Below, piece by piece: positions 5,511 to 56,626 of a stretch of 64,000 bases of DNA. Numbering within the stretch: the stretch's first letter is position 1; each line of letters begins with the position of its first letter. This DNA comes from Candidatus Kaiserbacteria bacterium (GTDB lineage Bacteria > Patescibacteriota > Minisyncoccia > Phycocordibacterales > UBA2100): assembly GCA_016867375.1 (NCBI GenBank), contig VGJQ01000001.1:21394-85393 (forward strand), given 5' to 3'. A model generated the notes under the pieces. The model saw nothing but the letters and a program-made list of their open reading frames with translations, did no database searches and was not told where the DNA came from. The translations under genes and the position numbers were made by a program.

Positions 5511-5550
5511 CACTTGTTTATAGTTCGCGGCCGCGAACTATAAACAAGTG
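5511..5550. promoter_or_regulatory. 40-bp perfect palindrome cacttgtttatagttcgcggccgcgaactataaacaagtg (copy 1)
   Basis: Perfect dyad symmetry. Lies 36 bp downstream of the PaaX-like gene stop and 27 nt upstream of a TGgTATAAT extended -10 preceding the HIT gene start. A near-identical copy lies upstream of the PaaX-like gene. Confidence 0.6.
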
Positions 5551-5585: not shown

Positions 5586-6206
5586 TTAATCCAGTGGTAA
5601 GCCGAAGTGCTTACGGAGTGGTCGATCATATTCGACCGCATCGGCAATAAGGTATAGGAGGTTGGTACCGATGCACAGATTCGACTTGAGTAGAGCGATC
5701 ACTTCTTCGCAGTCATACGGATAGACCCACACACTATGTTGCAGTCGTAAGAAGCCAAGGTGGCGGACAAGGTATCGGATATGGTCACGCTGCGCTTTTC
5801 GTTTCTCCGGTATGTCAAAGATGACGATGCGCCAGCGACGATCCCACCGTTTTGGCTTGACGATAGATTTTATGCGACTCAGCTCCGCTTCCAAAAAATC
5901 CTTCCCCTTGTCAGTGATGCACATGCGCTTGCGGCCATTTTCATATCGGAACTCGACCAAACCCTTTCGTTTAAGACGCGAAGCCGTTTCATGGAGGCGC
6001 TGACGTGGGTCGGAAGGAAGGATCATATCGAGATGCTCGTTTTTCACGAGCGACAACACTTTTGGCGCCGCCATGGCCACTGTAAGAAGCCCTCCAGTGA
6101 CCAGCGTACCTAAAAGAACCTTCTCGAGTGCACCACGGCGAGCACGCTTCCTGACAACTCCCTCTAGGGTGAGAGTGGATACATTTTTACCGGGTAGTCT
6201 TTTCAT
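5586..6206 (-). CDS. PaaX-family-like transcriptional regulator (winged-HTH plus C-terminal Cas2-like/PaaX_C-type domain), with an N-terminal hydrophobic segment
   Basis: wHTH-like segment ASRLKRKGLVEFRYENGRKRMCITDKGKDFL. C-terminal WDRRWRIVIFDIPE...LGFLRLQHSVWVYP pattern as in PaaX C-terminal domains. The family assignment is by motif recall only. Confidence 0.5.
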   Translation of the reverse strand: MKRLPGKNVSTLTLEGVVRKRARRGALEKVLLGTLVTGGLLTVAMAAPKVLSLVKNEHLDMILPSDPRQRLHETASRLKRKGLVEFRYENGRKRMCITDKGKDFLEAELSRIKSIVKPKRWDRRWRIVIFDIPEKRKAQRDHIRYLVRHLGFLRLQHSVWVYPYDCEEVIALLKSNLCIGTNLLYLIADAVEYDRPLRKHFGLPLD

Positions 6207-6227
6207 AATGCAATGCGGAGATTATAG

Positions 6228-6267
6228 CACTTGTTTACAGTTCGCGGCCGCGAATTGTAAACAAGTG
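6228..6267. promoter_or_regulatory. 40-bp near-perfect palindrome cacttgtttacagttcgcggccgcgaattgtaaacaagtg (copy 2)
   Basis: One mismatch from perfect dyad symmetry. Its end, ...aacaaGTG, runs directly into cTATAAT (an extended -10), about 10 nt before the ATG of the PaaX-like gene on the minus strand. Confidence 0.6.
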
Positions 6268-6445
6268 TTAGCGCGTCTATAGCACCGTTTATTGACTCAG
6301 ACCAAAGTGTTCGGCGAGGCGATAGAGTTTTTGGGAGATCTTTTAAAAGACCTCCTTTACCATATGTGGATCTGAAAATACCATAGCACACTGTTTCAAT
6401 CTGTCCATTGAACTCCAATTAGGTCACGATGCTACAATCATTGCG

Positions 6446-8143
6446 ATGAACGATGTTGGTATATCAGACCTCGTGCGTACACTGCTTGCCAAACGCGGTG
6501 TTGAATCAGAAGAAGACGTCGCCGCGTTTCTTTCTCCCGATTACGATGCACACACGCATGCGCCGGAATTATTGCACGACATGAAGATCGCAGTCGACCG
6601 CATCTTGAAAGCGATCGAGAACAACGAGCGGATTGCATTCTATACCGACTTCGATTGTGACGGGATTCCCGGAGCGGCGATTCTGTCGGACTTTTTTGCA
6701 AAAATAAAATACGACAATGTCGAAGTATATATTCCACATCGCGACAGGGAAGGATACGGCTTCCATGTCGCAGCGATCGAGCAGCTCGCTGCACGCGATG
6801 TGAAGGTGATCATCACTGTCGACGTCGGCACGGTCGCGCGCGAAGGATGTGCAGCCGCTCACGCATTGGGGATCGACGTCATCGTGACCGATCATCACGA
6901 AATCATCGGGGAGCGCCCCGCATGCTTGGCACTCGTGAATCCAAAGATTGCACCCTACCCGTTTGGCGGACTCTGCGGGGCGGCGACCGCATTCAAGCTC
7001 GTGCAAGCCACACTCGCCGAAGGGAAGCGGCGCGGACTCGAATCGTTCACGTCGATTCCCGATGGATGGGAAAAGTGGCTTCTTGATCTCGTCGCGATTG
7101 CGACCGTCGCGGACATGATGCCGCTCGTCGGCGAAAATCGCACGCTCGTACATTGGGGCCTCAAGGTGCTGCGCAAATCCGCTCGCCCCGGGATCGACGC
7201 CTTGTGCGCGGCGGCGCGCATCCGCAAAAGCGAGCTCACTGAAGATGATATTGGATTCACCATCGCACCTCGTGTGAATGCCGCTTCACGTATGGATGAG
7301 CCGAATCTCGCACTCAAACTCCTCACGACCCGTGACCGCGATGAGGCACAGTACCTCGCTGCGCAGCTCGAGCACCTCAACGCGAGCCGCAAGGGCGTCG
7401 TCGCAGGGATCGTAAAAAACGCGCGCAAGCACGTGGCCGCCCGCTATGGCGAAGGCGATAAAGTCGTCGTACTCGGCGACACAGCGTGGAAGCCCTCCCT
7501 CCTCGGGCTCGCCGCAAATTCGATCATGAACGATCGCGGCGGCATCGTGTGCTTGTGGGGCCGCGACGCACATGGAAAACTCAAAGGCTCGTGCCGCTCC
7601 GATGGCGAGATCAGTCTGGTGGACCTTTTTACCCATGCGCGCGACGTGTTTGAAGAGTGCGGCGGACATGCAGCATCGGGCGGATTCTCCGTTTCACACG
7701 AGCACGTACACACGCTTCCTGAGGCGCTTGCGCGCACCGTTTCACAGATTCAGTCCGATATGTCTGCGGACCCAAAGGCAAGCAACGCACCAGATCATGA
7801 CTCCATCATTACATTACGGGAAGCTTCTTGGGCGCTTTTCAAAGACATCTCGCTTCTCTCTCCATTTGGTATAAGCAACACGAAGCCCGTGTTTCGAATT
7901 TCGACCGTGACGATCCGATCAGTGCGACAATTTGGAAAAGAAAATAATCATGTCGAACTCCAACTCATAGAAGAGCGGACCAACGCGGCCGCGCGTGCAT
8001 TTCAATTCTTCAAAACCGCTGAAGATTTTTCACACACGCCCCGCGTAGGTGACACCGTGCACGTACTCGCCACACTGGAGCGCGACACCTTCCGTGGAGA
8101 GACCGCGACGTGCCTCCGCGTGATCGACATCCTCTCCGCGTAA
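6446..8143 (+). CDS. recJ: Single-stranded-DNA-specific exonuclease RecJ
   Basis: 565 aa with DHH family motifs (DFDCDGI, VTDHHE) and the DHHA1 region. A TACAAT -10 box lies about 9 nt upstream of the ATG (possible short leader). Confidence 0.9.
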   Translation: MNDVGISDLVRTLLAKRGVESEEDVAAFLSPDYDAHTHAPELLHDMKIAVDRILKAIENNERIAFYTDFDCDGIPGAAILSDFFAKIKYDNVEVYIPHRDREGYGFHVAAIEQLAARDVKVIITVDVGTVAREGCAAAHALGIDVIVTDHHEIIGERPACLALVNPKIAPYPFGGLCGAATAFKLVQATLAEGKRRGLESFTSIPDGWEKWLLDLVAIATVADMMPLVGENRTLVHWGLKVLRKSARPGIDALCAAARIRKSELTEDDIGFTIAPRVNAASRMDEPNLALKLLTTRDRDEAQYLAAQLEHLNASRKGVVAGIVKNARKHVAARYGEGDKVVVLGDTAWKPSLLGLAANSIMNDRGGIVCLWGRDAHGKLKGSCRSDGEISLVDLFTHARDVFEECGGHAASGGFSVSHEHVHTLPEALARTVSQIQSDMSADPKASNAPDHDSIITLREASWALFKDISLLSPFGISNTKPVFRISTVTIRSVRQFGKENNHVELQLIEERTNAAARAFQFFKTAEDFSHTPRVGDTVHVLATLERDTFRGETATCLRVIDILSA

Positions 8144-8155
8144 AAACGCCGAGGT

Positions 8156-8320
8156 GCGGCAACCCGGGCTGCAGTGCACATTTCAACTGTTCGAGCACAG
8201 CATACATCATGTCATCACCGGACCCGAAGCCCAGCAATTCTCTGATTGAAGAGTGGAAAGCGGGCGAGTTTTGAAACGTGCACTGCAGCCCGGGTTGCCG
8301 CGCCCAAAGGACAATCCACA
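8156..8320 (+). repeat. Long-stem hairpin element, family 1, copy A (31-bp closing stem with 1 mismatch, about 100-nt loop)
   Basis: The arms gcggcaacccgggctgcagtgcacatttcaa and ttgaaacgtgcactgcagcccgggttgccgc pair. The loop carries ctgttcgagcacagca...cggacccgaagcccag...gcgggcgagt, which is shared with copy B. Confidence 0.75.
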
Positions 8321-8365
8321 TGCTTCATTTTCCCCACGCCATCTCCATGATAGCGTTATATATGT

Positions 8366-9031
8366 ATGAATACCTTTTCACCGAGTTCGTCATTACAATT
8401 TGGTTGGCACACTTTTAAAAAGCGCGGGTGGTTTTTGGTCGGCAGCACCCTTCTGATGCTTGTGATCTTTTGGATGATTAGTGCGATCCAAAGTGCACCA
8501 CAGGACAACGCCGGGGTAGGACTCCTGATTTTTCTCGCGACCACTACAGCGTCGACTTTCGCGAGCATGGGCCTCACCGCGTTCTTCATCCGCGCGCATG
8601 ATGACGTCATGCATGTATCGCTCAATGAACTGTGGCACCCACAGCAGTTTTGGCAATTCCTCGCCGTGTCGATCCTGGTCGGCATCGCGAGCGTCATAGG
8701 CTTGATACTACTCATCATTCCCGGCCTCATCCTCATCACCATGTTTGCGTTTGCTAAGCTTCTCGTGATCGATCGTGCCATGGGTCCGATCGATGCGATG
8801 AAGGAAAGCATGCGCCTCACCAAAGGCAGTCGACTCAAGTTGTTCTTGCTCTTACTCGCGCTTCTTGTCATCAATATCCTCGGCGCTTTGACGCTGCTCA
8901 TCGGCCTACTCGTCACGATTCCCGTGAGCATGCTCGCGCTCACGCATGCATATCGCTCGCTTTCGCACAAAGGCACGCACCACCCCAACACGACACAGCT
9001 TCCGCACGCGCCGAATACATCTGCGATATAA
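8366..9031 (+). CDS. Polytopic membrane protein (DUF975-like)
   Basis: 221 aa with about 5 predicted transmembrane helices. No catalytic motif recognised. Confidence 0.5.
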   Translation: MNTFSPSSSLQFGWHTFKKRGWFLVGSTLLMLVIFWMISAIQSAPQDNAGVGLLIFLATTTASTFASMGLTAFFIRAHDDVMHVSLNELWHPQQFWQFLAVSILVGIASVIGLILLIIPGLILITMFAFAKLLVIDRAMGPIDAMKESMRLTKGSRLKLFLLLLALLVINILGALTLLIGLLVTIPVSMLALTHAYRSLSHKGTHHPNTTQLPHAPNTSAI

Positions 9032-9035
9032 TCGG

Positions 9036-9452
9036 ATGATGGAACGCGTGACGATTTATACAGACGGGGGAGCGCGCAACAACCCCGGACCAGCCGCGGC
9101 GGGTGCCGTTATCATGCATGGTGGAGAGGCAGTGACAGAAATCAAACAGTATCTCGGACCGCAAACAAATAATTGGGCTGAGTACGAGGCAGTCGCACTT
9201 GCCCTTGCCGAAGCAAAGCGACTCGGTCTCAACGGCACCCCGATCGAAGTCCGTCTCGACAGCAAGCTCGTCGCCGAACAACTCATGGGCAATTGGAAAA
9301 TCAAAGAGCCTACCCTCAAACCGCAGTGGGCCAAAGTGCGCGCGATGATGGCAGCGGATTTCCCCGATATCACATTCACACACATCCCGCGCGAGCAAAA
9401 TAAAGAAGCCGATCGACTCGTCAACGAAGCGCTTGATGAAGCCGGACACTAA
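9036..9452 (+). CDS. rnhA: Ribonuclease HI
   Basis: MMERVTIYTDGGARNNPGPAAAG N-terminus (carrying the first catalytic Asp) plus the conserved ...EYEAV...DSKLV...D core. 139 aa. Confidence 0.85.
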   Translation: MMERVTIYTDGGARNNPGPAAAGAVIMHGGEAVTEIKQYLGPQTNNWAEYEAVALALAEAKRLGLNGTPIEVRLDSKLVAEQLMGNWKIKEPTLKPQWAKVRAMMAADFPDITFTHIPREQNKEADRLVNEALDEAGH

Positions 9453-9463
9453 AGATACGCGGG

Positions 9464-9607
9464 TGCGGCAGTGGTGTGGGCGTGAGTGTTTCAACTGTTC
9501 GAGCACAGCACATACTATTTATTCCTCGGACCCGAAGTCCAGAAAACTCTGTTCGATACAAAAACGCGGGCGAGTTTTGAAACACTCACGCCCACACCAC
9601 TGCCGCA
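9464..9607 (+). repeat. Long-stem hairpin element, family 1, copy B (perfect 31-bp closing stem, about 82-nt loop)
   Basis: The arms tgcggcagtggtgtgggcgtgagtgtttcaa and its exact reverse complement pair. The stem sequence is completely different from copy A, but the loop core is conserved. It sits immediately 5' of the comEC start. Confidence 0.75.
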
Positions 9608-9635
9608 TATCACACTCGTCAGGGATGCTGCTCGG

Positions 9636-11153
9636 ATGTATAATCCCCGCCACATGGGGTCAACCATACTCTGGTCTACGGTAATCGGATTTCTCTCTGG
9701 CGTATTTGCGCGGTCTTTTATCCCACTCGGGTACGCTACGATGGGCACGCTTGTCCTCACGTCTTGGGCGCTTCTTGCATACGTCGCTCTCGGTAAAAGA
9801 TACGCGCGCATATGCATCTCATTGGCCGCTTTTTGTTTTCTGTGTGCGGCAGGGATATGGCGCATGGACATGGCGATCATCCCCGTCGACACGACCCTTC
9901 AGGCGCACACTGGTCAACGTGTCACTTTGTCGGGATACGTATTTGCCGAGCCCGACGCGCGCGAAGGCAGCACACGCGTATCCCTCAAGGTCCGCACACT
10001 GAGCATCGCGAGCACCACACTACCCGCACATGCCGGCATACTCGCCGTCCTGCCACCCCATACGCACGTCTCATACGGGGATATCGTCACGGTCTCGGGC
10101 ATCGTACGCATGCCCGAAGCATTTGATACCGGCATCGACCGGACATTCGACTATCCTGGATACCTCGCCACCAACGGTATTTCATACCTGGTATCTTCCG
10201 CACATCTCGAATCCATCGATGGCAACGAGGGCAACATCGCGCAGGCCTCCGTACTGCGCATAAAAAAGATATATCTCGACGGCCTCCATCAGACCTTGAG
10301 CGAGCCACAGGCGGGCCTCGCCGCAGGTATCACCGTCGGCGACAAACGATCCATCGGACCGGAGCGCTCGGAAGAATTCGTACGCGCCGGACTCGTCCAT
10401 ATGCTTGTCCTGTCCGGTTACAACATCACGATCATCCTCAACGCGGCAGCGTACTTCGTATCCTCCTTGCCGCGCGTCCTCCAATTGGGCACGAGCGGCA
10501 TCGTCGTCATGTTTTTTATCCTCCTTTCAGGCGGGGCATCGAGTGCGATACGCGCCGGACTCATGGCGCTCGTCGCTGCATTCGCCCGCCAGCACGGACG
10601 CATCTACCTGCCACTGCGCGCTATCGGGATCGTCGCAGCCGGTATGGTGCTCTGGAATCCATATATCCTTGCATTTGACCCAGGATTCCAGTTATCGGCA
10701 CTTGCCACCATTGGTCTCGTCGCCTTTACGCCGCCTATCGCCTCACACCTCCCTTGGATCACCGCCCGCCTTGGACTGCGCGAGATTGTTGCATCAACCC
10801 TCGCGACCCAAATCACCGTACTACCATTGCTCCTCTACCAAAACGGGCAACTTGCCGCCCTCTCACTTCCGGCAAACATTTTGGCACTCATTCCCGTACC
10901 TTTTGCGATGGCGGCATCGTTTGGCGCAGCGGTACTTGGAGCATTGTTTGGATCGACTGCGGCTATACTGGCATTTCCTGCATATGCACTCCTTTCGTAT
11001 ATACTCAGCATCGCTCATTTTTTCGCCTCGCTTCCGTTTGCGTCGGTATCTATCCGCGCATTCAGCGCCTGGTGGCTCACCATCGTATATATGGGACTCT
11101 TCATGTGGTGGCGATATTATGTCTCTGATGATAAAAACGAAAAAGCGGCCTGA
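9636..11153 (+). CDS. comEC: ComEC/Rec2-family DNA-uptake channel protein (N-terminal DUF4131 plus competence domain; no fused MBL domain)
   Basis: Polytopic. The conserved competence-domain region (HMLVLSGYNITII...GGASSAIRAGLMALVA) is present. The start was set at the first ATG downstream of hairpin element B. The ORF track starts at 9486, inside the hairpin. Confidence 0.8.
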   Translation: MYNPRHMGSTILWSTVIGFLSGVFARSFIPLGYATMGTLVLTSWALLAYVALGKRYARICISLAAFCFLCAAGIWRMDMAIIPVDTTLQAHTGQRVTLSGYVFAEPDAREGSTRVSLKVRTLSIASTTLPAHAGILAVLPPHTHVSYGDIVTVSGIVRMPEAFDTGIDRTFDYPGYLATNGISYLVSSAHLESIDGNEGNIAQASVLRIKKIYLDGLHQTLSEPQAGLAAGITVGDKRSIGPERSEEFVRAGLVHMLVLSGYNITIILNAAAYFVSSLPRVLQLGTSGIVVMFFILLSGGASSAIRAGLMALVAAFARQHGRIYLPLRAIGIVAAGMVLWNPYILAFDPGFQLSALATIGLVAFTPPIASHLPWITARLGLREIVASTLATQITVLPLLLYQNGQLAALSLPANILALIPVPFAMAASFGAAVLGALFGSTAAILAFPAYALLSYILSIAHFFASLPFASVSIRAFSAWWLTIVYMGLFMWWRYYVSDDKNEKAA

Positions 11154-13840: not shown

Positions 13841-16800
13841 GTGAACGCCGAATCCCGATACTTACACGGTCTCAACGAACGACAAAAAGAGGCGGTACTC
13901 CACACCGAGGGGCCGCTTCTCATCATTGCAGGAGCGGGGGCGGGCAAGACTAAGACCATCACACACCGCATCGCACACATGATCGAGCAGGGGGTACCAG
14001 CGCGACAAATCCTCGCCGTGACGTTTACCAATAAGGCGGCGGGGGAGATGCGTGAACGCGTCAAGAAATTGATCCCTGAGGGAAGGGGCGTCCCTTTGGT
14101 CGCGACATTTCATAGCCTGGGTGTGCGGCTTTTGCGCGAATTCCATGAGGAAGCGGGGCTTGAGCGCGGTTTTAGTATCTGGGATCGCGACGATAGTATG
14201 CGCGTCATCAAGCGTGCGCTCGAAAAGCTCAATATCGAGACGATCCCCGGCCGCAATGTACTGTCGGCGATTTCCCGCGCAAAAGGGGATGGCATCTCGC
14301 GCGAGGAGTACGATCGCGACGCCAATTCATTCCACGAGCGCACGGTCGCCCAAGTATGGCAGATCTACGACAAGGCGCTTCACGAAGAGGGTGCCTTGGA
14401 TTTCGACGACCTCCTGGGTCGTACACTTATGCTTCTACAGAACTCGCCGCGCGTGCTTGAACTTTTGAGGGGTCGCTGGCACTACATCACGATCGACGAA
14501 TATCAAGACACCAACGCCGCGCAATACGAGATTGCACGCTTGCTTTCTGGCGAGCGCCGCAATCTCTGCGTCGTCGGCGATATCGACCAGTGTGTTGCGG
14601 AAGGAACACTCATTACTATGGCAGATGGAGAAAAAAAACCTATCGAACGTGTCAAAAAGGGTGATTTAGTGCTATCAAACTATGGCAGCGGCGCCATGCG
14701 CCCATCACACGTCCATCGGATACACAGGCGATCAACAAGGGAAACAGTGACTATCACCACAAAATCCGGCCGTAGACTGACGACCACATCGGATCATGTA
14801 CATTTTGCCGGATATCGGCTCGGTATCGTGCCACAGATGTATTTCACGTACCTTATGTATAAGCACGGCGTCGGGTACCGACTTGGAGTATCACAAGTCT
14901 ATGCCAACGGCCAACGAACTCCAATGGTCGGATTCCAACAACGCTGCAACCATGAACACGGGGATGCTGTATGGATCATTGGAACTCATACCGCCTCGAA
15001 CGATGCGCGCGTCATGGAGTACACACTCTCTCTCCAATACCAAATACCGACACTACCATTCGTGGCGCGCAAAGGAGTGAGTGTCGGCGGATATGTACAC
15101 GACCAAAGGGTTATAGATGCACTATTCGCCACAATCGATACAGAAAAGGGAGCCTTTCGGCTACTTCGAGACCGTGGCCTGTCGCGCGATTACCCCCACC
15201 ACCGAGCACAGTCTCGAGACAGTAATCGGCGTAATGTAACGATCACGCTCTGTGGCGATCAGCGCGGTAAAACCCCTATGCATCGTATATCAATGACCGG
15301 AAATGACGACGAAGGGAAACATCTTTTGCAATCTATCGGACTTTCCGTGCGTTCTGTAAAGAATGGATCATCGAGCTGGCGTTTCGAGAGTGCACACGCC
15401 GACTACGCAGCCTTGCGTGAACGTGTCATGCACATCTCTACTGTGTTTCCCAGACTTGCCATAATTGAGAATGCACGACTTGGTGGCAATAAGGCAAATC
15501 CAAAAGATGGAAATTCGCTCGGTTTCCTACCAGCCGCATCGGTGCTTCCTGGCATGGCCCTGTTCGACGAGGTGGGAGGATACGACATTATAACTGGTGT
15601 AGAAAAAGCTACTCAAACCAGGCGCGTTTACGACATCGACATCGAACACACACACAATTTCATCGCAAATGGCATTATCACGCACAATTCGATATATACT
15701 TGGCGCGGGGCCGACATCGAACACTTGATGAACTTCGAGACTCAGTTCCCGGGTACCAAAGTCATCCTCCTCGAACAAAATTACCGTTCTACGCGCACCA
15801 TCCTCACCGCTGCCAATGCGGTGATTGCTAAAAACAAACGCCGCAAAGAGAAAAATCTTTTTACCGACAACGACACAGGCGAACCGATCCATACATACGC
15901 CGCGCGCAATGAAATGGACGAATCGTGGTTTGTCGCACAGACAGCGGTCGAGATGATACAGGGGGGCATCAGGCCCGACGAAATCGCAATCCTTTACCGG
16001 GAGAACTTCCAGTCGCGTGCACTCGAAGAGGCACTCCTCGCATTCTCAGTGCCCTATCGCGTGCTCGGCACCAAATTCTTCGAACGCAAAGAAGTGAAAG
16101 ACACGCTCTCATATCTGCGCGCTGCGCTCAATCCGAAAAGCAAAGTCGATCTCGTGCGCGTGGCCGCTGTACCACCGCGCGGTATCGGCAAAGTGACGCT
16201 CGATAAAATGCTTGCCCCGTTAGAAAAACCAGATACTAACGGCTTCACGTCAATATGGGACCAGTTTTTTCTAACGGGGCGAGTGGGGGATGAGTCTTCC
16301 ATCACAGGAGCAACACTCATCAAGGTGACAAAATTCCGTGAACAGATCGCGGCTATACGCAAAGCAATCGAAACGTTACCCGCATCTGAAGCGGTGCGAT
16401 ACACCGTCGAAGTGTCCGGTATGGAAAAGATGTATCAGGAAGACAAGAAAGAGGGGATAGAGCGTCTCGAAAACATCCACGAGCTCGTCAATCTCGCCGT
16501 GCGCTACGATGAGGAGCTCCCCCCAGTTGGTATCGAAAAGCTCCTCGAAGAAGCCGCCCTCCAGTCCGACCAGGATGAGCTTGAGGAGCCCCAGGCAGCA
16601 GTCTCCCTTATGACCATTCATGCGTCCAAAGGTCTCGAATTCGACGCGGTGTTTGTGACCGGCCTCGAGCAAGGCCTCTTTCCGTCACTACGCGAAGATA
16701 CGCGCGACCCCGAAGAAGAGCGCCGACTCTTCTACGTCGCTGTCACACGCGCGCGCAAGCGGCTCTTCCTCAGTCATGCCGGCGAACGCATGAAATACGG

Positions 16801-16918
16801 CTCGCGCGAGCGCGCCCTGCGATCAGAATTCATCCACGACATCGACCAGCGCCTCATCGTCCACTCCTCACGCGACGGTGGCGTAGAAGGGCAATCGGGA
16901 GAGGGAATTATTTGGTAA
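13841..16918 (+). CDS. uvrD: UvrD/PcrA-family ATP-dependent DNA helicase interrupted by an intein
   Basis: Motif I AGAGAGKTKTITHRIAH. Helicase motif VVGDIDQ / SIYTWRGA is split by a 366-aa insertion. The C-terminal motifs (TIHASKGLEFDAVFV, RLFYVAVTRARKRL) are intact. The extein alone is about 659 aa. Confidence 0.9.
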   Translation: MNAESRYLHGLNERQKEAVLHTEGPLLIIAGAGAGKTKTITHRIAHMIEQGVPARQILAVTFTNKAAGEMRERVKKLIPEGRGVPLVATFHSLGVRLLREFHEEAGLERGFSIWDRDDSMRVIKRALEKLNIETIPGRNVLSAISRAKGDGISREEYDRDANSFHERTVAQVWQIYDKALHEEGALDFDDLLGRTLMLLQNSPRVLELLRGRWHYITIDEYQDTNAAQYEIARLLSGERRNLCVVGDIDQCVAEGTLITMADGEKKPIERVKKGDLVLSNYGSGAMRPSHVHRIHRRSTRETVTITTKSGRRLTTTSDHVHFAGYRLGIVPQMYFTYLMYKHGVGYRLGVSQVYANGQRTPMVGFQQRCNHEHGDAVWIIGTHTASNDARVMEYTLSLQYQIPTLPFVARKGVSVGGYVHDQRVIDALFATIDTEKGAFRLLRDRGLSRDYPHHRAQSRDSNRRNVTITLCGDQRGKTPMHRISMTGNDDEGKHLLQSIGLSVRSVKNGSSSWRFESAHADYAALRERVMHISTVFPRLAIIENARLGGNKANPKDGNSLGFLPAASVLPGMALFDEVGGYDIITGVEKATQTRRVYDIDIEHTHNFIANGIITHNSIYTWRGADIEHLMNFETQFPGTKVILLEQNYRSTRTILTAANAVIAKNKRRKEKNLFTDNDTGEPIHTYAARNEMDESWFVAQTAVEMIQGGIRPDEIAILYRENFQSRALEEALLAFSVPYRVLGTKFFERKEVKDTLSYLRAALNPKSKVDLVRVAAVPPRGIGKVTLDKMLAPLEKPDTNGFTSIWDQFFLTGRVGDESSITGATLIKVTKFREQIAAIRKAIETLPASEAVRYTVEVSGMEKMYQEDKKEGIERLENIHELVNLAVRYDEELPPVGIEKLLEEAALQSDQDELEEPQAAVSLMTIHASKGLEFDAVFVTGLEQGLFPSLREDTRDPEEERRLFYVAVTRARKRLFLSHAGERMKYGSRERALRSEFIHDIDQRLIVHSSRDGGVEGQSGEGIIW
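14591..15688 (+). mobile_element. Intein (366 aa) in the UvrD helicase motif (VGDxDQ|S)
   Basis: Begins CVAEGTLITMADG (block A, Cys1). TTTSDHVHF (block B, TxxH). Ends IANGIITHN followed by Ser+1. The host motif is restored to VGDIDQSIYTWRGA on in-silico excision. No clear LAGLIDADG motif is seen in the central region. Confidence 0.8.
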
Positions 16919-16956
16919 GGGTTCGTCCACGAATAACGTACCCGTTATGTGTGAAC
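16916..16956 (+). repeat. REP-like TAAGGGYTCGTCC-hairpin element (copy 1; its TAA is the uvrD stop codon)
   Basis: taagggttcgtccacgaataacgtacccgttatgtgtgaac. This is a member of a 5-copy family. Confidence 0.7.
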
Positions 16957-17019
16957 TATGGCACATCGGCATAGTATTTTTGGAAACCAGGTTCCTTAAT
17001 GATAGTATGCCGGTACTTT

Positions 17020-17766
17020 ATGGCTTCACGCAAAGTACCGCTTGTACCCAATGAATATTTCCATGTCTACAATAGGGGTGTAGACGGTCGCTCTATTATT
17101 CAAGATAAAGAAGATCTTGGACGCCTGTTAAACAGTATGCGCGTTTTTAACCGCGTCGAACCGGTGGGAAGCCTTTATGCGTTTTCATTCCACGACCCTC
17201 AGTTAAGGAACCAGGTTCCTAAGTTGGAAGACAGTAAGCACCTTGTGTCTATCGTGTCTTTCAACATTCTCCCGAATCACATCCATTTCGTCCTGAAGCC
17301 ACTCGTTGAGAAAGGTGGGAGTGAGTATGTAAAACGTGTTATCGGAGGATTCACATTGTTCTTCAATGAAAAGTACGGGCGAACTGGGCCTCTTTTTCAA
17401 AGTCCGTTTAAAAGTACGCATATCCGCAGCACTCACCACTTGTTACACATGCAAACGTATGTCAATTTAAATGATTATATTCACGGACGAGGGCAATTTC
17501 CTGAATGGGTGGGTGCCAGCAGTTGGGGTATGTTCACCACTAAAACAATGAACGATATCTGCGACCCAATTGAGGTCGAAGCTATTCTTTCCCATTTTCC
17601 CAATCGTAGTGAATATCGAAAACGGGCCCTCGAAACTGCCGATGCAATATGGCAAGAGCGTATGGCAGACGAAATCGAGCAAACAACGCAGGGACGCGAT
17701 ATTGCGGACCAAGCCGCTCTGGAGAAGAATATTCTTCCCCAACTTAGGAACCAGGTTCCTAAGTGA
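17020..17766 (+). CDS. IS200-like / REP-associated tyrosine transposase (COG1943-type Y1 transposase)
   Basis: YFHVYNRG N-terminal motif, the HUH motif NHIHFVL, and a C-terminal Y-containing helix (YVNLNDYIHG). It is flanked by, and internally contains, the 21-nt palindrome ttaaggaaccaggttcctaag at about 16984, 17203 and 17743. Confidence 0.7.
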   Translation: MASRKVPLVPNEYFHVYNRGVDGRSIIQDKEDLGRLLNSMRVFNRVEPVGSLYAFSFHDPQLRNQVPKLEDSKHLVSIVSFNILPNHIHFVLKPLVEKGGSEYVKRVIGGFTLFFNEKYGRTGPLFQSPFKSTHIRSTHHLLHMQTYVNLNDYIHGRGQFPEWVGASSWGMFTTKTMNDICDPIEVEAILSHFPNRSEYRKRALETADAIWQERMADEIEQTTQGRDIADQAALEKNILPQLRNQVPK

Positions 17767-20030: not shown

Positions 20031-20116
20031 GGGCTCGTCCACACATAACGTACCCGTTATGTGTGGACTACACTTATGGCCCCGTTCATTTCGAGTTGTT
20101 AATGAACGGGATCTAA
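20028..20116 (+). repeat. REP-like element, full-length two-hairpin form (copy 2)
   Basis: taagggctcgtccacacataacgtacccgttatgtgtggac followed by tacacttatggccccgttcatttcgagttgttaatgaacgggatctaa. The same two-hairpin arrangement is at 36769-36862. Confidence 0.7.
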
Positions 20117-26026: not shown

Positions 26027-26530
26027 ATGCAATTCCAGGTTCCCCAATTCATCGAGGTCGAGGACAAGATCTTTGGTCCGTTCACGTTCAGACAGTTCAT
26101 CTATCTCGTGGGTGGTGCTGGTGCGTGCTACCTTGTATGGCGCGTCCTGCCGGTATTTGTATCGTTGCCACTGATCATCTTTATCGCGCCGTTTTCCGTG
26201 GCGCTTGCCTTCTTTCAAATGAACGGCCGTCCGTTTATTCTCGCGCTCGAAAGCGGCTTCTTTTATCTCATACACTCAAAGTTGTACCTATGGAACAACA
26301 CGAAAAAACCGCTTGTCGCACGCGAAAAGACAAAAACAGCCGCAGCGACCAAGAACGGTCTCTACATACCTCGGCTTTCCGACAGCAAACTTCACGAGCT
26401 CGCCTGGAGCCTTGATATTAGAGAGCGCATCGCGAGCGGCACGACAGTGGAGGCCGAGCGGCAGCCAGCTCCCGTCGACGTACTCGCCCCCGTCCGCACT
26501 GCCCGCGACGCCATGACTAAAGCATCATAA
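26027..26530 (+). CDS. VirB3/PrgI-like small membrane protein (two TM helices)
   Basis: 167 aa. Two adjacent hydrophobic helices near the N-terminus (FRQFIYLVGGAGACYLVWRVLPVFVSLPLIIFIAPFSVALAFF). Sits immediately before the VirB4 gene, as VirB3/PrgI genes do. Confidence 0.45.
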   Translation: MQFQVPQFIEVEDKIFGPFTFRQFIYLVGGAGACYLVWRVLPVFVSLPLIIFIAPFSVALAFFQMNGRPFILALESGFFYLIHSKLYLWNNTKKPLVAREKTKTAAATKNGLYIPRLSDSKLHELAWSLDIRERIASGTTVEAERQPAPVDVLAPVRTARDAMTKAS

Positions 26531-27258: not shown

Positions 27259-30200
27259 ATGGCACTCCTAGACCTCCTACACCTCGGCGACAAGAACAAG
27301 AAAGATACGGAGGGCCCGGGGATAATCCCGGTATTGCCCGCGGAGATCTACCAGACGGGCGTGCTCGACCTGCAAGACGTCATCGCACCGCATGCACTGC
27401 AGATCAATTCGCGCGAGCTCGATCTCGGCGAGAAGATCGCGCGTACCTTTTTTGTGATCTCATATCCGCGCTTCCTTACGACAGGGTGGTTTGCGCCGAT
27501 CATCAACATGGACAAGGTGATCGACATTTCCATCTTCGTCCACCCGATGGATACCAATGAGATGCTACGCAAATTCCAAAAAAAGGTCGCCGAGGTGCAG
27601 AGCCAGATATCCACACGCGAAGAGAAGGGAATGGTGCGCGATCCGATGCTCGACACCGCTTACCAAGACCTCGAACAGCTGCGCGACAGCCTCCAGCAAG
27701 CGCAGGAGCGCATTTTCGATGTCGGCCTGTACCTGACGATCTACGGCAACACACGCGAGGAGATCGACAAGGCCGAGGCAGCGGTACGCTCGATCCTCGA
27801 AAGCCGCCTCGTCTACATCCGCCCCGCACTCTTCCAACAAGAACAGGGGTTCCGATCTGTCTTGCCCTTATGCACTGATTTACTTGATGTACACACCAAG
27901 CTCAATTCGGCCCCGCTCTCGTCGATCTTTCCCTTCATCTCGTTTGACCTCACGTCAGACCGCGGCATCCTCTATGGCATCAACCGCCACAATTCATCAC
28001 TGATCCTCTTCGACCGCTTTAGTTTGGAGAACTATAACTCGGTCACTTTTGCAAAGTCGGGCGCAGGCAAAAGTCTTCGCGGCAACGAGTCGGTACTCAT
28101 ACGCCGCAATGGTGTAATACATAGAGAAAGAATCGGTTCGGTCGTTGAGCGACTTATCAAAAAGCATGGCGCCACAAAAATCGATGAAGAGCTCGAGGGT
28201 GTCATTGACCCTGGTTTTGAAGTATTCAGTTTCGACAAGAATATGCGGGCAGGGTGGAGTATGGTTTCTGTCGCCGCACGCAAAGAGGCCCCGGATATCT
28301 ACTATACATTCAAAACAAAAAGTGGCCGGGAAGTAACCACAACCGCCGATCATAATATGCTCGTGTTGCGCGACTGCAAGGTGATCGCCGCAAAAAGTGA
28401 AGATGTACGCGAAGGGGAGTATATCCCTTTACCGCGACAGGTGCATGCGACAAGCGGCGGCTCACATCACGAGCTAACGAAAGATTTTGCTTCACTATTA
28501 GGTTGGATATCGGCCGAGGGAGCATTCACTGATCGCTCAATCGTCATCAGCAATACAGAACAAGAAGCCTTGGATCAGATTGCGACACTCTGTGCCAATC
28601 TACACTTGAATCATACGCGAAACGCGCGATGGATTGCCGTGTATGGTAAAGCATTGCGCGTATACTTGCACTCGATCGAGGCGGATGGTTTGTCGGGAAG
28701 AAAACGCGTTCCTGCGCCCGTCTTTGGCGCGTCGCGCGAAATAGTTGCCGCGTATTTGCGTGCGTATTTCGAAGGCGATGGAGGGGTCGAAGATCACGAA
28801 GTAACCGTTCTTTCAAAATCAAAAGAGCTCATTTCCGGCATATCATATCTTTTGTATTACTTTGGTATCATCTCACGCATCCAAAAACGACACAAACGAT
28901 ACGCGGCGACAGGCGGTTACCGCACGTTCTGGCAATTACAGATTTCAGGTCAGGATAATATCAGAAAATTCCAGGAGTATGTCGGTTTTGTTTCGACGCG
29001 CAAACAGTCGGCGCTCGCCCCTATTGCCGCGAAAGCGGGTAATACCAACGTTGACATTGTTCCTGGGTTGCAACCGCTCGCGCAAGAACTCGCGTCGCTT
29101 TTCGACTCGCAGCTCTCCGACATCGCCGACTTTTCCGCGCTCAAACAGGGGCGCAACCTCTCTCCACAACACCTTGGAAGGTTCGTATCGACGATGGAGG
29201 AACGTGTCCAACGCTTCAAAGACCTCTATCCATTTATGCAAAAGCTGCAAGACTTGCCTACTGTAGGCGCGATCATCAAAAAAGCCGACGAAGATCGGGA
29301 ACTGAATCGCGGACTTATCGAGGCTATGAGCAGTTCATGGTTCACCATCAAACAAGGAATGGCCCCGCGCGCCAAAAACGCATTAAAAATATTCGAGACG
29401 GCGGGAATGGATGCACCAAAGACAGTGGATGAATTAAAAACGATGCTCAACGAAGGTATCGCGAATCTCCGCGTGCCGGCGAACGGTTTTGACGGCGGTT
29501 ATCTGGCGCGGACATTAGGCGGTATGCGAGACAATGCATCATATGATTTGCTGCACGCCGCCGCCCAATTCATCGCGGGAGAGTACCACCGCATATTGCA
29601 AAACCTGAATCGCGTTGAGGAAATCATCACCACACTCAAAACGCTCGCCGAGGCGGACCTTTTTTGGGATCCGATTGTATCCATCACTAAGAAAGAGAAT
29701 ATAGGAGACAAATACGTGTATGATCTTACTGTTGATGACGAAGTGTTCCTGGCCGGGCACGGCGGCATGTTCGTGCACAATTCGTATACGACCAAACTGG
29801 AGATATTGCGCTCCCTCATGTTCGACACCGAAGTGATCGTGATCGACCCGGAGCGCGAATATGAATACCTCGCAGAGACGGTCGGCGGGCGCTACTTCAA
29901 CATCTCACTCTCCTCCGAACATCACATCAATCCCTTCGACCTGCCGATACCGCGCGAAGATGAAAATCCATCAGACGTGCTGCGCAACAACACCATCGCA
30001 CTCGTCGGACTCTTCCGCATCATGCTCGGCGGACTCACTCCCGAGGAAGATGCAATCATCGATAAAGCCATCACCGAGACATACGCGCTCAAAGACATCA
30101 GCGCTGATGCCAATTTCGCCGCCGTCGAACCGCCGCTTCTCTCAGACTTCGAGCTCGTACTCTCGGGCATGGAAGGATCAGAATCGCTCGTACAGCGACT

Positions 30201-30930
30201 CGCCAAATACACCAAGGGCACCTGGTCGGGCTTCATGAATCGCCCCACCAACGTCGATATGAATAAGAAACTCGTCGTCTTCTCGGTGCGCGACATGGAA
30301 GACGATCTCAAGCCCGCCGCCATGTACATCATCACACACCACATCTGGAACACCGTGCGTAAAGAGCTGCGCAAGCGCCTCCTCGTCATCGACGAGGCAT
30401 GGTGGATGATGCGCTCTGAAGATACTGCATCATTTCTCTTCTCGATCGCAAAGCGCGGACGCAAATACTACCTCGGCATCTCGACCATCACCCAAGACGT
30501 CTCCGACTTCCTCAACTCTCCGTACGGCATTCCCATGATCACCAACTCATCGATTCAGCTCCTCCTGCGCCAATCTCCGACATCGGTCGATCTCGTCCAG
30601 AGCACCTTCAAACTCTCCGATGAGGAAAAATATCTCTTGCTCGAATCCGACGTGGGGGAGGGGATTTTCTTCGCCGGACTCAAGCACGTCGCACTCAAAG
30701 TGATTGCATCGTACACCGAAGACCAGATCATCACCTCTGACCCATCACAAATCCTCGCCATCAAGAAAGCGAAGCAAAATCTCGCCGCAGCAGGTGAGGG
30801 CGGCCCCGCCGCTGAAGCAGCTATCGCCGAAGTGTCCGCCCAAACGATGGTAGAACATGCTGCGCCCGGTGCCGACACCGCGGGCGTGGGTGCAAGCTCT
30901 CTCAACAGCAATGCGCTTAAGAGCGTATGA
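27259..30930 (+). CDS. virB4: VirB4-family type IV secretion ATPase (Gram-positive TraE/PrgJ-like) interrupted by an intein in the Walker A P-loop
   Basis: The N-terminal region (RTFFVISYPRFLTTGWFAPII...ISIFVHP) matches VirB4/TraE proteins. Walker A FAKSGAGK|...|SYTT is split by a 570-aa insertion. Walker B LLVIDEAWWM and C-terminal motifs are intact. The extein is about 653 aa. Confidence 0.85.
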   Translation: MALLDLLHLGDKNKKDTEGPGIIPVLPAEIYQTGVLDLQDVIAPHALQINSRELDLGEKIARTFFVISYPRFLTTGWFAPIINMDKVIDISIFVHPMDTNEMLRKFQKKVAEVQSQISTREEKGMVRDPMLDTAYQDLEQLRDSLQQAQERIFDVGLYLTIYGNTREEIDKAEAAVRSILESRLVYIRPALFQQEQGFRSVLPLCTDLLDVHTKLNSAPLSSIFPFISFDLTSDRGILYGINRHNSSLILFDRFSLENYNSVTFAKSGAGKSLRGNESVLIRRNGVIHRERIGSVVERLIKKHGATKIDEELEGVIDPGFEVFSFDKNMRAGWSMVSVAARKEAPDIYYTFKTKSGREVTTTADHNMLVLRDCKVIAAKSEDVREGEYIPLPRQVHATSGGSHHELTKDFASLLGWISAEGAFTDRSIVISNTEQEALDQIATLCANLHLNHTRNARWIAVYGKALRVYLHSIEADGLSGRKRVPAPVFGASREIVAAYLRAYFEGDGGVEDHEVTVLSKSKELISGISYLLYYFGIISRIQKRHKRYAATGGYRTFWQLQISGQDNIRKFQEYVGFVSTRKQSALAPIAAKAGNTNVDIVPGLQPLAQELASLFDSQLSDIADFSALKQGRNLSPQHLGRFVSTMEERVQRFKDLYPFMQKLQDLPTVGAIIKKADEDRELNRGLIEAMSSSWFTIKQGMAPRAKNALKIFETAGMDAPKTVDELKTMLNEGIANLRVPANGFDGGYLARTLGGMRDNASYDLLHAAAQFIAGEYHRILQNLNRVEEIITTLKTLAEADLFWDPIVSITKKENIGDKYVYDLTVDDEVFLAGHGGMFVHNSYTTKLEILRSLMFDTEVIVIDPEREYEYLAETVGGRYFNISLSSEHHINPFDLPIPREDENPSDVLRNNTIALVGLFRIMLGGLTPEEDAIIDKAITETYALKDISADANFAAVEPPLLSDFELVLSGMEGSESLVQRLAKYTKGTWSGFMNRPTNVDMNKKLVVFSVRDMEDDLKPAAMYIITHHIWNTVRKELRKRLLVIDEAWWMMRSEDTASFLFSIAKRGRKYYLGISTITQDVSDFLNSPYGIPMITNSSIQLLLRQSPTSVDLVQSTFKLSDEEKYLLLESDVGEGIFFAGLKHVALKVIASYTEDQIITSDPSQILAIKKAKQNLAAAGEGGPAAEAAIAEVSAQTMVEHAAPGADTAGVGASSLNSNALKSV
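28072..29781 (+). mobile_element. Intein (570 aa) with a LAGLIDADG homing-endonuclease domain, inserted in the VirB4 P-loop
   Basis: Starts SLRGNESVLIRRNG (Ser1). TTTADHNMLV (block B). LAGLIDADG-like motifs LLGWISAEGAF and LRAYFEGDGGV. Ends GMFVHN followed by Ser+1. Removal restores GAGKSYTT. Confidence 0.8.
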
Positions 30931-36345: not shown

Positions 36346-36461
36346 GGAGGGGTGTGGCCGTATGGTGTTCTGGAACCATACCTACATTTTCACGCTTGCT
36401 GTTTGAGCTCCTGCTCTACATATGTGCCGGATATCCGTTCGCTGCGCGATGTTCCAGAACA
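36346..36461 (-). repeat. Long-stem hairpin element, family 2, copy C (21-bp stem ending ggaac/gttcc)
   Basis: The arms ggccgtatggtgttctggaac and gttccagaacaccatacggcc pair. The inner sequence is the reverse complement of the conserved core of copy D. Confidence 0.7.
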
Positions 36462-36554
36462 CCATACGGCCACATTCCTGACACCAACCTCCGGGCAACG
36501 TGCGTGGCCGTGTGTTTTGCCGTCTTCGCAGCCGCGACTAATCACACCCACCCT

Positions 36555-36685
36555 CAAGCGGTAGTGGCATACTGTTTTGGAACATCGCGCAGCGAACAAA
36601 CATCTGGCACACTAGTAGAGCAGGAGCTCGAAAAGAAAGGGTGGGACGAGGGTGTGGTTCCGAAACAGTATGCCACTACCGCTTG
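36555..36685 (+). repeat. Long-stem hairpin element, family 2, copy D (29-bp stem ending ggaac/gttcc)
   Basis: The arms caagcggtagtggcatactgttttggaac and gttccgaaacagtatgccactaccgcttg pair. The inner core atcgcgcagcgaacaaacatctggcacactagtagagcaggagctc is conserved with copy C (inverted). Confidence 0.7.
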
Positions 36686-36768: not shown

Positions 36769-36862
36769 TAAGGGCTCGTCCACAAATAACGTACTCGTTA
36801 TTTGTGGCAGCCACTTATGGACCCGTTCATTTTATGTTGAACTTTTTATGAACGGGTCCTAA
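36769..36862 (+). repeat. REP-like element, full-length two-hairpin form (copy 4), inside the oriC region
   Basis: taagggctcgtccacaaataacgtactcgttatttgtggc ... ggacccgttcattttatgttgaactttttatgaacgggtcctaa. Confidence 0.65.
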
Positions 36863-47575: not shown

Positions 47576-47685
47576 ACAAAATCTATTGACTTTTATGTTG
47601 TATATGATATACTTCCATCAGCTGAAGTTTTTCAGGAGTTTTCGATTCATCAGCCACAAACAGAGGATCAATCCGGCTCGACGGA

Positions 47686-47817
47686 GGCGCGATTCTCTCA
47701 ACGATTGTATCATCATCCAGGACGGCGGCAGTCTGCCGCCACGCGGAATAGCACTTCCCCTATCCTGAGGTCATGACGCAGCTTTTCATTCAAAAGTGTC
47801 GTTGAGAGAATCGCGCC
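47686..47817 (+). repeat. Long-stem hairpin element (copy E; perfect 18-bp closing stem, about 96-nt interior with an internal ggcggcag-tctg-ccgcc hairpin)
   Basis: ggcgcgattctctcaacg ... cgttgagagaatcgcgcc. Confidence 0.6.
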
Positions 47818-47893
47818 CCTGTCTACCAATGATCACGATAGCATCTGCGGGCGCGCACACAAAGAGACTATCGTGGTGTGATGGAGGAAAGAC

Positions 47894-56585: not shown

Positions 56586-56626
56586 TAAGGGCTCGTCCAC
56601 AAATCACGTACTCGTTATTTGTGGAC
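56586..56626 (+). repeat. REP-like TAAGGGCTCGTCC-hairpin element (copy 5)
   Basis: taagggctcgtccacaaatcacgtactcgttatttgtggac. Confidence 0.65.

Follow-up and report, generated by a model that had tools for sequence, protein, structure and literature searches.

The 64-kb window studied here (the whole stretch of DNA that was analysed, whose positions give all coordinates below) belongs to the genome of a Candidatus Kaiserbacteria bacterium of the Candidate Phyla Radiation (CPR) and contains two long hairpin elements, which we call A and B. The local gene order is PGK, HIT, a PaaX-like gene, recJ, A, DUF975, rnhA, B, and comEC, followed by superoxide dismutase and other genes (Table 1). Both elements have the same orientation, measure about 145 to 150 bp, and consist of a closing stem of 31 to 32 bp around a loop of 82 to 84 nucleotides (nt). 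Each starts exactly 9 nt past the TAA stop codon of the upstream gene (recJ and rnhA, respectively). The end of A lies about 61 nt from the ATG of the DUF975 gene (8366), and the end of B lies 46 nt from the ATG of comEC (9654), a start that was judged from the N-terminus MGS.., which is common to the relatives. A preliminary description of this DNA had correctly recognized two hairpins of one orientation with stems of about 31 bp but placed the end of A at 8320 instead of 8302 to 8304 and gave 45 nt and 28 nt as the distances to the DUF975-like gene and comEC. The latter figure was measured from an in-frame ATG at 9636, which lies inside the -10 region of the predicted promoter. Since an independent Logan assembly of SRR16108666 reproduces A, an assembly artefact is unlikely; the contig of that assembly breaks at the perfect 31-bp arms of B, and arms of this kind break k-mer assemblies.

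Table 1. Positions of the two hairpin elements, their parts, and other features of the window
Feature	Position	Strand	Remarks
Element A, whole hairpin	8153-8304	+	GG and TGCGGCA base, 19-bp variable mid-stem, GTTTCAA/TTGAAAC inner stem, 84-nt loop
A, 5' arm	8155-8186	+	pairs with 8271-8302
A, 3' arm	8271-8302	+	partner of 8155-8186
A, variable part of arm	8162-8180	+	AA-CCCGGG-CTGCAG-TGCAC-A
Element B, whole hairpin	9462-9607	+	GG at 9462-9463 conserved, unpaired
B, 5' arm	9464-9494	+	pairs with 9577-9607
B, 3' arm	9577-9607	+	partner of 9464-9494
B, variable part of arm	9471-9488	+	GTGGTGTGGGCGTGAGTG
Block 1, 22 nt	A 8181-8202, B 9489-9510	+	TTTCAACTGTTCGAGCACAGCA; identical in both
Block 2, 16 nt	A 8219-8234, B 9527-9542	+	CGGACCCGAAGYCCAG; one C/T difference
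Block 2, A version	8219-8234	+	CGGACCCGAAGCCCAG; one C/T off B
Block 3, 18 nt	A 8260-8277, B 9566-9583	+	GCGGGCGAGTTTTGAAAC; identical in both
recJ	6446-8143		upstream of A
DUF975 gene	8366-9031		downstream of A
rnhA	9036-9452		upstream of B
comEC	9654-11153		downstream of B
comEC promoter-like site	9616-9644	+	TCGTCA-17-TATAAT; downstream of B, context and not part of the element
Y1/HUH (RAYT/IS200-type) transposase gene	16999-17766	+	lineage-specific; HUH and catalytic-Tyr motifs
Palindromes GGAACCAGGTTCC	16983-16996, 17207-17219, 17747-17759		flank the Y1 gene and interrupt it once
Hairpin C	36348-36479		inverted relative to D; rpmH-dnaA intergenic region
Hairpin D	36555-36685		75 nt from C; rpmH-dnaA intergenic region
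Hairpin E	47680-47823		single copy, 25-bp arms, 94-nt loop; between pilB-like and ruvB genes
REP-like 31-nt palindrome, CGTC head	36777-36807, 56594-56624, 20036-20066	same orientation	CGTCCACAAATAACG-TAC-TCGTTATTTGTGG
Degenerate CGTC-REP copy	~16924-16955	same orientation	just upstream of the Y1 transposase gene

An inverted-repeat scan delimited the arms of A as 8153 to 8186 and 8271 to 8304 (34 nt, 94% complementary). The core stem of A comprises 32 pairs, of which 8180/8277 is an A.C mismatch and the outermost is T.G; that of B is perfect, its 31-nt arms being 100% complementary. Common to A and B are GGTGCGGCA on the 5' side and TGCCGC on the 3' side, and the stem base TGCGGCA/TGCCGC (7 to 9 bp) is invariant between the two. 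The mid-stem of 18 to 19 bp is identical at 7 of 19 positions (37%). The stems had been described as wholly different between the copies; this applies to the mid-stem and not to the base or to the inner stem, which are shared. The conserved loop blocks of that description were recovered as three segments of 22, 16, and 18 nt, exact except for a single C/T difference, and matches of this kind were absent from every shuffle of the window. The first loop spacer (16 nt) is identical at 7 positions (44%), and the second differs in length, with 25 nt in A versus 23 nt in B. A coding function was considered and rejected, as no reading frame is conserved between A and B, whose spacers between blocks 2 and 3 are unequal in length by 2 nt. 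The variable arm of A was also seen to consist of three adjoining palindromic hexamers, CCCGGG-CTGCAG-(G)TGCAC (SmaI, PstI, and ApaLI sites). About 0.2 palindromic hexamers would be expected by chance in 19 nt, and none occurs in the variable arms of B or of the hairpins C, D, and E described below.

Base pairing is maintained where the sequence is not, as the preliminary description had proposed. In the RNAalifold consensus, 11 stem pairs were changed on both sides, none was changed on one side only, and none was broken in B. Among the approximately 60 pairs of the shared stem core there was no G-U pair and one A.C, all others being Watson-Crick. A stem core of this kind is symmetric for both strands, which is the pattern expected of a DNA palindrome. 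The folding energies of A and B were 8 to 11 standard deviations below those of dinucleotide shuffles on either strand and with RNA or DNA parameters. The loops alone showed no extra stability relative to shuffles on either strand (z, -0.9 to +0.4), and because they fold no better than shuffled sequence, the invariant blocks look like sequence recognition sites rather than RNA structure. The sharp alternation of invariant blocks and randomized segments shows that the blocks are under sequence selection and that the mid-stem is under selection for pairing only or is subject to copying from arm to arm.

The consensus energy was -76 kcal/mol on the minus strand versus -66 kcal/mol on the plus strand. 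In the minus-strand fold the A.C mismatch of A becomes G-U, and a central GGRC-UUCGG-GUCC hairpin is prolonged by 4 bp into the variable spacers; two pairs covary and several are G-U. Either strand could form a helix with the C/T difference in block 2. The signals from wobble pairs disagree, with the outermost T.G of A pointing to the plus strand and the mismatches in C, D, and E being mixed; strand assignment by wobble pairs was dropped as evidence because of this conflict. A search of the whole window against Rfam 15 at gathering thresholds returned one tRNA and no family matching A or B. At an E value of ≤10, the region from 8100 to 9700 matched only MIR807 (24 bits versus a cutoff of 113), a generic long-hairpin match. 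A match of the loop core to a described RNA family, which the preliminary description had named as a refuting result, was thus not found.

We compared the locus with those of five relatives (L039, L040, L041, L058, and L059), with RecJ identities of 87, 80, 79, 78, and 76%. The order recJ-(x)-DUF975-rnhA-comEC is kept in L040 and L041. The B site is empty in L040, where 53 nt separate rnhA from comEC; in L041 this interval contains an unrelated small open reading frame (ORF) and a normal terminator and no B. At the A site, none of the five relatives has a hairpin downstream of recJ, and no long hairpin of the A/B design was found in roughly 55 kb of relatives' sequence. RecJ and RNase H keep their native C-termini and stop codons, and the conserved predicted promoter regions of DUF975 and comEC continue immediately 3' of the elements. 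As the native C-termini and stops are intact and the sites are empty in relatives, A and B are either lineage-specific insertions or have been lost in every sampled relative.

The predicted DUF975 promoter region, AATCCACAT.CTTCATTT...TAGCGTTATA..GTATG, lies 3' of A and is conserved in relatives; L040 and L041 retain the sequence 3' of A, AATCCACATGCTTCATTTTCC...TAGCGTTATATATGTATG, which L059 retains in part. For comEC, the TATAAT/TACAAT-9 nt-ATG arrangement is kept in relatives. The spacing of both elements is fixed to the upstream stop and not to the downstream start. No terminator-like site was called on the plus strand at A or B, with weak sites on the minus strand only, and no conserved promoter was found flanking A or B on the minus strand. 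An ORF that begins at GTG 9486 runs through the loop and 3' arm of B in frame with comEC and would encode 555 amino acids (aa) versus 499 aa for the real protein; an open frame of this kind can mislead gene callers to extend comEC too far upstream.

Exactly two copies of the A/B element are present in the window, with none in about 4.4 kb of extra flanking sequence. The preliminary description had suggested a genome-wide search for more copies and the building of a covariance model. A covariance model was built, and the window, the relatives, and the sequence collections yielded A and B only. Specifically, blastn-short and the covariance model R1 found only A and B when applied to the window plus twelve fetched loci of relatives (200 kb in total). 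The 16-mer CTGTTCGAGCACAGCA (core of block 1) had 12 matches in IMG/VR, all due to chance and in coding sequence. The loop had no blastn match in phage and plasmid collections, and a six-frame peptide query, directed at spurious ORFs over other copies, returned nothing at an E value of ≤10 from a collection of 5.8 billion proteins. The idea of an empty hairpin target was rejected, as the window contains no family of short GCGGCA...TGCCGC hairpins.

The window also encodes a Y1/HUH transposase, and its gene is missing at the matching position in relatives. The protein showed weak matches to NCBIfam REP_Tyr_transpos and Pfam Y1_Tnp. The 5.8-billion-protein collection yielded only seven homologues, four of which match Pfam Y1_Tnp, at values of up to 4e-8. 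The best PDB match of its AF2 model (pLDDT, 67) was 4er8, a complex of a RAYT with a REP (repetitive extragenic palindromic) hairpin (E, 9e-4), followed by the IS608, ISDra2, and IS200 TnpA transposases. The internal and C-terminal copies of the palindrome GGAACCAGGTTCC encode the repeated peptide PQLRNQVPK, and the same arrangement is kept in a 58%-identical homologue (L066). Genomes with a distant Y1 homologue were seen to carry repeated perfect palindromes built on GGAGGTCGGACCTTCC (L067, 2336-2376 and 15262-15300; L072, 5363-5401), which hints that systems of a Y1 gene plus palindromes are more widespread in these bacteria. A scan of 40 window ORFs against Pfam, and of ten of these against NCBIfam as well, revealed no reverse transcriptase, Cas, Nop/Tas, integrase, or DDE transposase.

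Further palindromic families reside in the same window. The inverted-repeat scan detected three more long hairpins of the A/B design, C and D (family 2) and E. The stems of C and D (29 bp) are about half identical (~46%) and compensated, and their loops of 73 to 74 nt are 86% identical over 57 nt. Both adjoin perfect DnaA boxes, TTATCCACA (36692) and TGTGGATAA (36764), at the cumulative GC-skew minimum. There is no sequence relationship among family 1 (A/B), family 2 (C/D), and E. The loop of E contains a small hairpin, GGCGGCA-GTC-TGCCGCC, that resembles the A/B stem base. A REP-like palindrome with a CGTC head is present in three clear copies, one of them with a compensated stem change, and one degenerate copy. 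The position of the degenerate copy beside the Y1 gene is notable because CGTC-tagged REPs have been reported without a dedicated transposase (PMC3733652).

Several other features of the window were recorded. Near-identical perfect palindromes of 40 to 46 nt, CACTTGTTTAYAGTTCGCGG/CCGCGAA..TAAACAAGTG, at 5511-5550 and 6225-6270 bracket the PaaX-like ORF (5586-6206, minus strand), whose product combines a winged helix with a Cas2-like domain. Relatives have no such gene between HIT and recJ. The palindromes around it may form a pair of operators or, alternatively, mark the termini of a further small inserted cassette. Logan contigs are interrupted at the palindrome 5511-5550. An intein interrupts UvrD/PcrA (13841-16918, with Hint/intein domains), and the relatives' version of this protein has 651 aa and is intein-free. 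A VirB4/TraG-like ATPase (27259-30930) carries an intein and a LAGLIDADG domain and is part of a block resembling a type IV secretion system, which includes PrgI at 26027-26530.

Our tentative interpretation, which we hold with slightly less than even confidence, is that A and B are diverged copies of a small, lineage-specific, non-autonomous foldback mobile element, a hairpin resembling REPINs or MITEs (miniature inverted-repeat transposable elements). In such a mobile element the unit that counts would be the single-stranded hairpin, and movement would pass through a single-stranded DNA intermediate. The stem base TGCGGCA/TGCCGC and the three blocks would be the recognition sequences for a trans-acting protein, and the Y1 protein might be considered a candidate for this mobilizing role. 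The 18- to 19-bp mid-stem would need pairing only, its Watson-Crick pairs being kept by compensatory change or by one arm being copied from the other, and would drift freely because only its pairing matters. Insertion would take place at safe intergenic spots, 9 nt past the recJ and rnhA stops and ahead of the next promoter, and A and B would probably be transcribed passively as hairpins in 3' untranslated regions (3' UTRs). The preliminary description had proposed selection on structure, acting on either a structured RNA or a hairpin-dependent DNA element. The latter fits better: a DNA-level hairpin is favored over a folded RNA because the stem core has no G-U pairs, the loops are unexceptional, the orthologous sites are empty, and palindromic families and a Y1 gene are co-resident.

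A number of observations weigh against this interpretation. Mobility is inferred from two comparisons with empty sites in relatives that are fairly distant. Neither A nor B is bordered by a target-site duplication, the flanks being ..CGCCGA/A/CCCAAAGG and ..TACGCG/B/TATCAC, and the flanks have no motif in common. Within all the sequence searched, two copies are known. Exact matches to the 18-mer GCGGGCGAGTTTTGAAAC in 185,579 species-representative genomes (25 in genome_contigs) and JGI metagenomes (16 in metagenome_contigs) were due to chance and lacked the other blocks; both collections are without the source contig, so that the source genome lies outside the reach of these scans. The 17-nt form of GCGGGCGAGTTTTGAAAC had no match in IMG/VR. 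No autonomous element with the same ends as A and B was found, and no such insertion sequence occurs in the window. The GGAACCAGGTTCC palindromes of the Y1 gene are unrelated in sequence to A and B, as is the CGTC-REP family. The distribution of conservation is also unusual for mobile DNA. Blocks of 22, 16, and 18 nt are invariant beside segments of 37 to 44% identity, which is the reverse of ordinary MITEs, and this sharp mosaic would also agree with a functional RNA or with a host element bound by protein. REPINs have invariant 16-mers (the REPs) at both ends and an apical spacer that varies, whereas A and B have only a base of 7 to 9 bp in common, with a mid-stem that varies and an apical region that does not.

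The compensated closing stem and the invariant loop blocks could instead belong to a structured RNA, either on the plus strand, as the 3' end of the mRNAs of recJ and rnhA, or on the minus strand, as an independent antisense small RNA. The closing helix might then act in processing or protection, for example as a substrate of RNase III or a barrier to exonucleases, with the loop blocks binding a protein or a target. At 9 nt past the stop codons, the elements would be transcribed on the plus strand by read-through unless a terminator intervened, and none is predicted on that strand; the minus-strand fold, for its part, converts the A.C mismatch to G-U and extends the central hairpin with two covarying pairs. 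We nevertheless consider an RNA function doubtful. Not one G-U pair occurs in the shared stem core, the loops are no stabler than shuffles on either strand, and the strand signals conflict with each other, with no conserved promoter on the minus strand. Moreover, the orthologous sites in relatives are empty, and Rfam has no match. The least probable of the explanations is a cis-regulatory 5' leader of the downstream membrane-protein genes, to which the preliminary description had by implication linked the elements and which their proximity to DUF975 and comEC alone would support. Judging from the sequence, A and B each follow one transcription unit and precede the promoter region of the next and so would not be 5' leaders: the predicted promoters conserved in L040, L041, and L059 lie between the elements and the starts. 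With the spacing tied to the upstream stop and relatives expressing DUF975 and comEC without the elements, the idea appears essentially excluded by position, and the earlier link is not retained.

The elements might instead serve the host at the DNA level, as cruciform or hairpin sites for a binding protein; possible roles would be an insulator between transcription units, a nucleoid-protein site as in BIME-1/RIP, or a lagging-strand signal for single-strand initiation or priming. Symmetric, all Watson-Crick pairing with invariant blocks in an otherwise unstructured loop agrees with this, and its main support is the inverted pair C and D, which sits at oriC, with DnaA boxes between rpmH and dnaA at the GC-skew minimum. 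A host role of this kind is improbable in our view, since the corresponding loci of relatives lack A and B, which are thus not a conserved operon part, no binding protein was identified, and nothing ties A or B to replication. Lastly, the invariant segments could be handles that flank two variable segments (16 and 23 to 25 nt) above a palindromic closing stem, giving a guide-RNA-like module of TIGR-like topology. The edges between the invariant blocks and the segments of 37 to 44% identity are sharp, and TIGR arrays in CPR have variable yet palindromic stems and motifs flanking two spacers (PMC12045711). However, A and B form no tandem array, being 1.3 kb apart with two housekeeping genes between them; the invariant blocks lack box C/D motifs (RUGAUGA/CUGA); the variable segments are longer than 8- to 12-nt spacers; and no Nop/Tas-like or other effector candidate was found among the 40 ORFs compared with Pfam. 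No second match to the variable stems or spacers occurs in the window, and three of four queries of IMG/VR (A stem, both long spacers, 19-nt cores) had none. The variable stem of B had one exact 19-nt match (L064, 7421-7439; L065, 6298-6316; 53.7% G+C), which lies in a 62-aa phage ORF and is about the chance expectation for the scans made. We therefore regard a guide module as very improbable. Hardly more credible is the related idea of stand-alone hairpin RNAs with a processing stem, handles, and two programmable segments, dispersed and TIGR-like in design but not in sequence, whose effector could be one of the genome's many unannotated proteins.

Returning to the mobile hairpin element, we compared A and B with known palindromic systems. 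Like REPINs and REPs, they are non-coding, extragenic units of about 100 to 150 nt that lie mostly just 3' of genes, REPs being located mostly 3' of coding regions (PMC3733652), and that fold, as single-stranded DNA or RNA, into a long hairpin. In REPINs, which are mobile DNA hairpins with compensatory stem changes, part of the hairpin is likewise kept as pairing alone (PMC3116915). The likeness to REP-RAYT systems extends to the co-residence of a RAYT-like Y1 gene and a REP-like family in the window of A and B. In REP-RAYT systems, however, the RAYT gene is flanked by the same repeat, whereas the Y1 gene here is flanked by GGAACCAGGTTCC and a degenerate CGTC-REP. The A/B blocks are not inverted copies of one REP. 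The arms are inverted copies of each other within each element, and between elements only 7 to 9 bp of the base are conserved. REPINs number tens to hundreds of copies versus the two known for A/B. A further point of likeness is that in the BIME-1/RIP units of Escherichia coli a conserved protein-binding linker lies between inverted palindromes.

Correia/NEMIS, ERIC, and the Rickettsia palindromic elements resemble A and B in size, intergenic position, lineage specificity, hairpin-forming transcripts, and lack of coding function. MITE copies have terminal inverted repeats in common and usually target-site duplications, and A and B have neither; their arms share only the TGCGGCA/TGCCGC base and the GTTTCAA/TTGAAAC top. 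The preliminary description was thus right in setting them apart from a conventional MITE. The integron attC sites and the ssoA-type origins of rolling-circle plasmids are, as A and B would be, orientation-dependent hairpins of single-stranded DNA in which structure counts over stem sequence, and sso elements carry conserved loop motifs. Unlike attC sites, A and B have no R''/R' core sites (RYYYAAC/GTTRRRY), extrahelical bases, or integrase; their ends are TGCGGCA/TGCCGC, their stems are perfect, and they lie among housekeeping genes that are syntenic in relatives. Unlike ssoA-type origins, they have no plasmid or rolling-circle context and no RS_B/CS-6 motifs, and unlike an intrinsic terminator, they have no short G+C-rich hairpin plus U tract called on the plus strand. 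With TIGR-Tas systems they share occurrence in CPR, variable and always palindromic closing stems, and conserved motifs flanking two variable loop segments; TIGR-Tas units themselves are tandem, lie beside a Nop-domain Tas gene, and have box C/D motifs and 8- to 12-nt spacers (PMC12045711).

The small genomes of CPR bacteria (Patescibacteria) are thought to be poor in repeats and regulatory RNAs. The presence in 64 kb of five long hairpins in three families, a CGTC-REP family, and a RAYT-like Y1 gene suggests that a lineage of Kaiserbacteria has an active hairpin-based mobilome. Family 1 separates sequence-selected from pairing-only positions unusually cleanly, and more A/B copies would make it possible to dissect what a hairpin-recognizing enzyme or an RNA-binding partner reads. 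Because their arms are not common to the copies, no target-site duplication is present, and no RAYT is flanked by the same repeat, A and B are a variant in design and belong to neither the REPIN nor the MITE family. Most likely, the A/B family is a new variant of mobile DNA of the palindromic kind, and the CPR genome that carries it is richer in such elements than expected.

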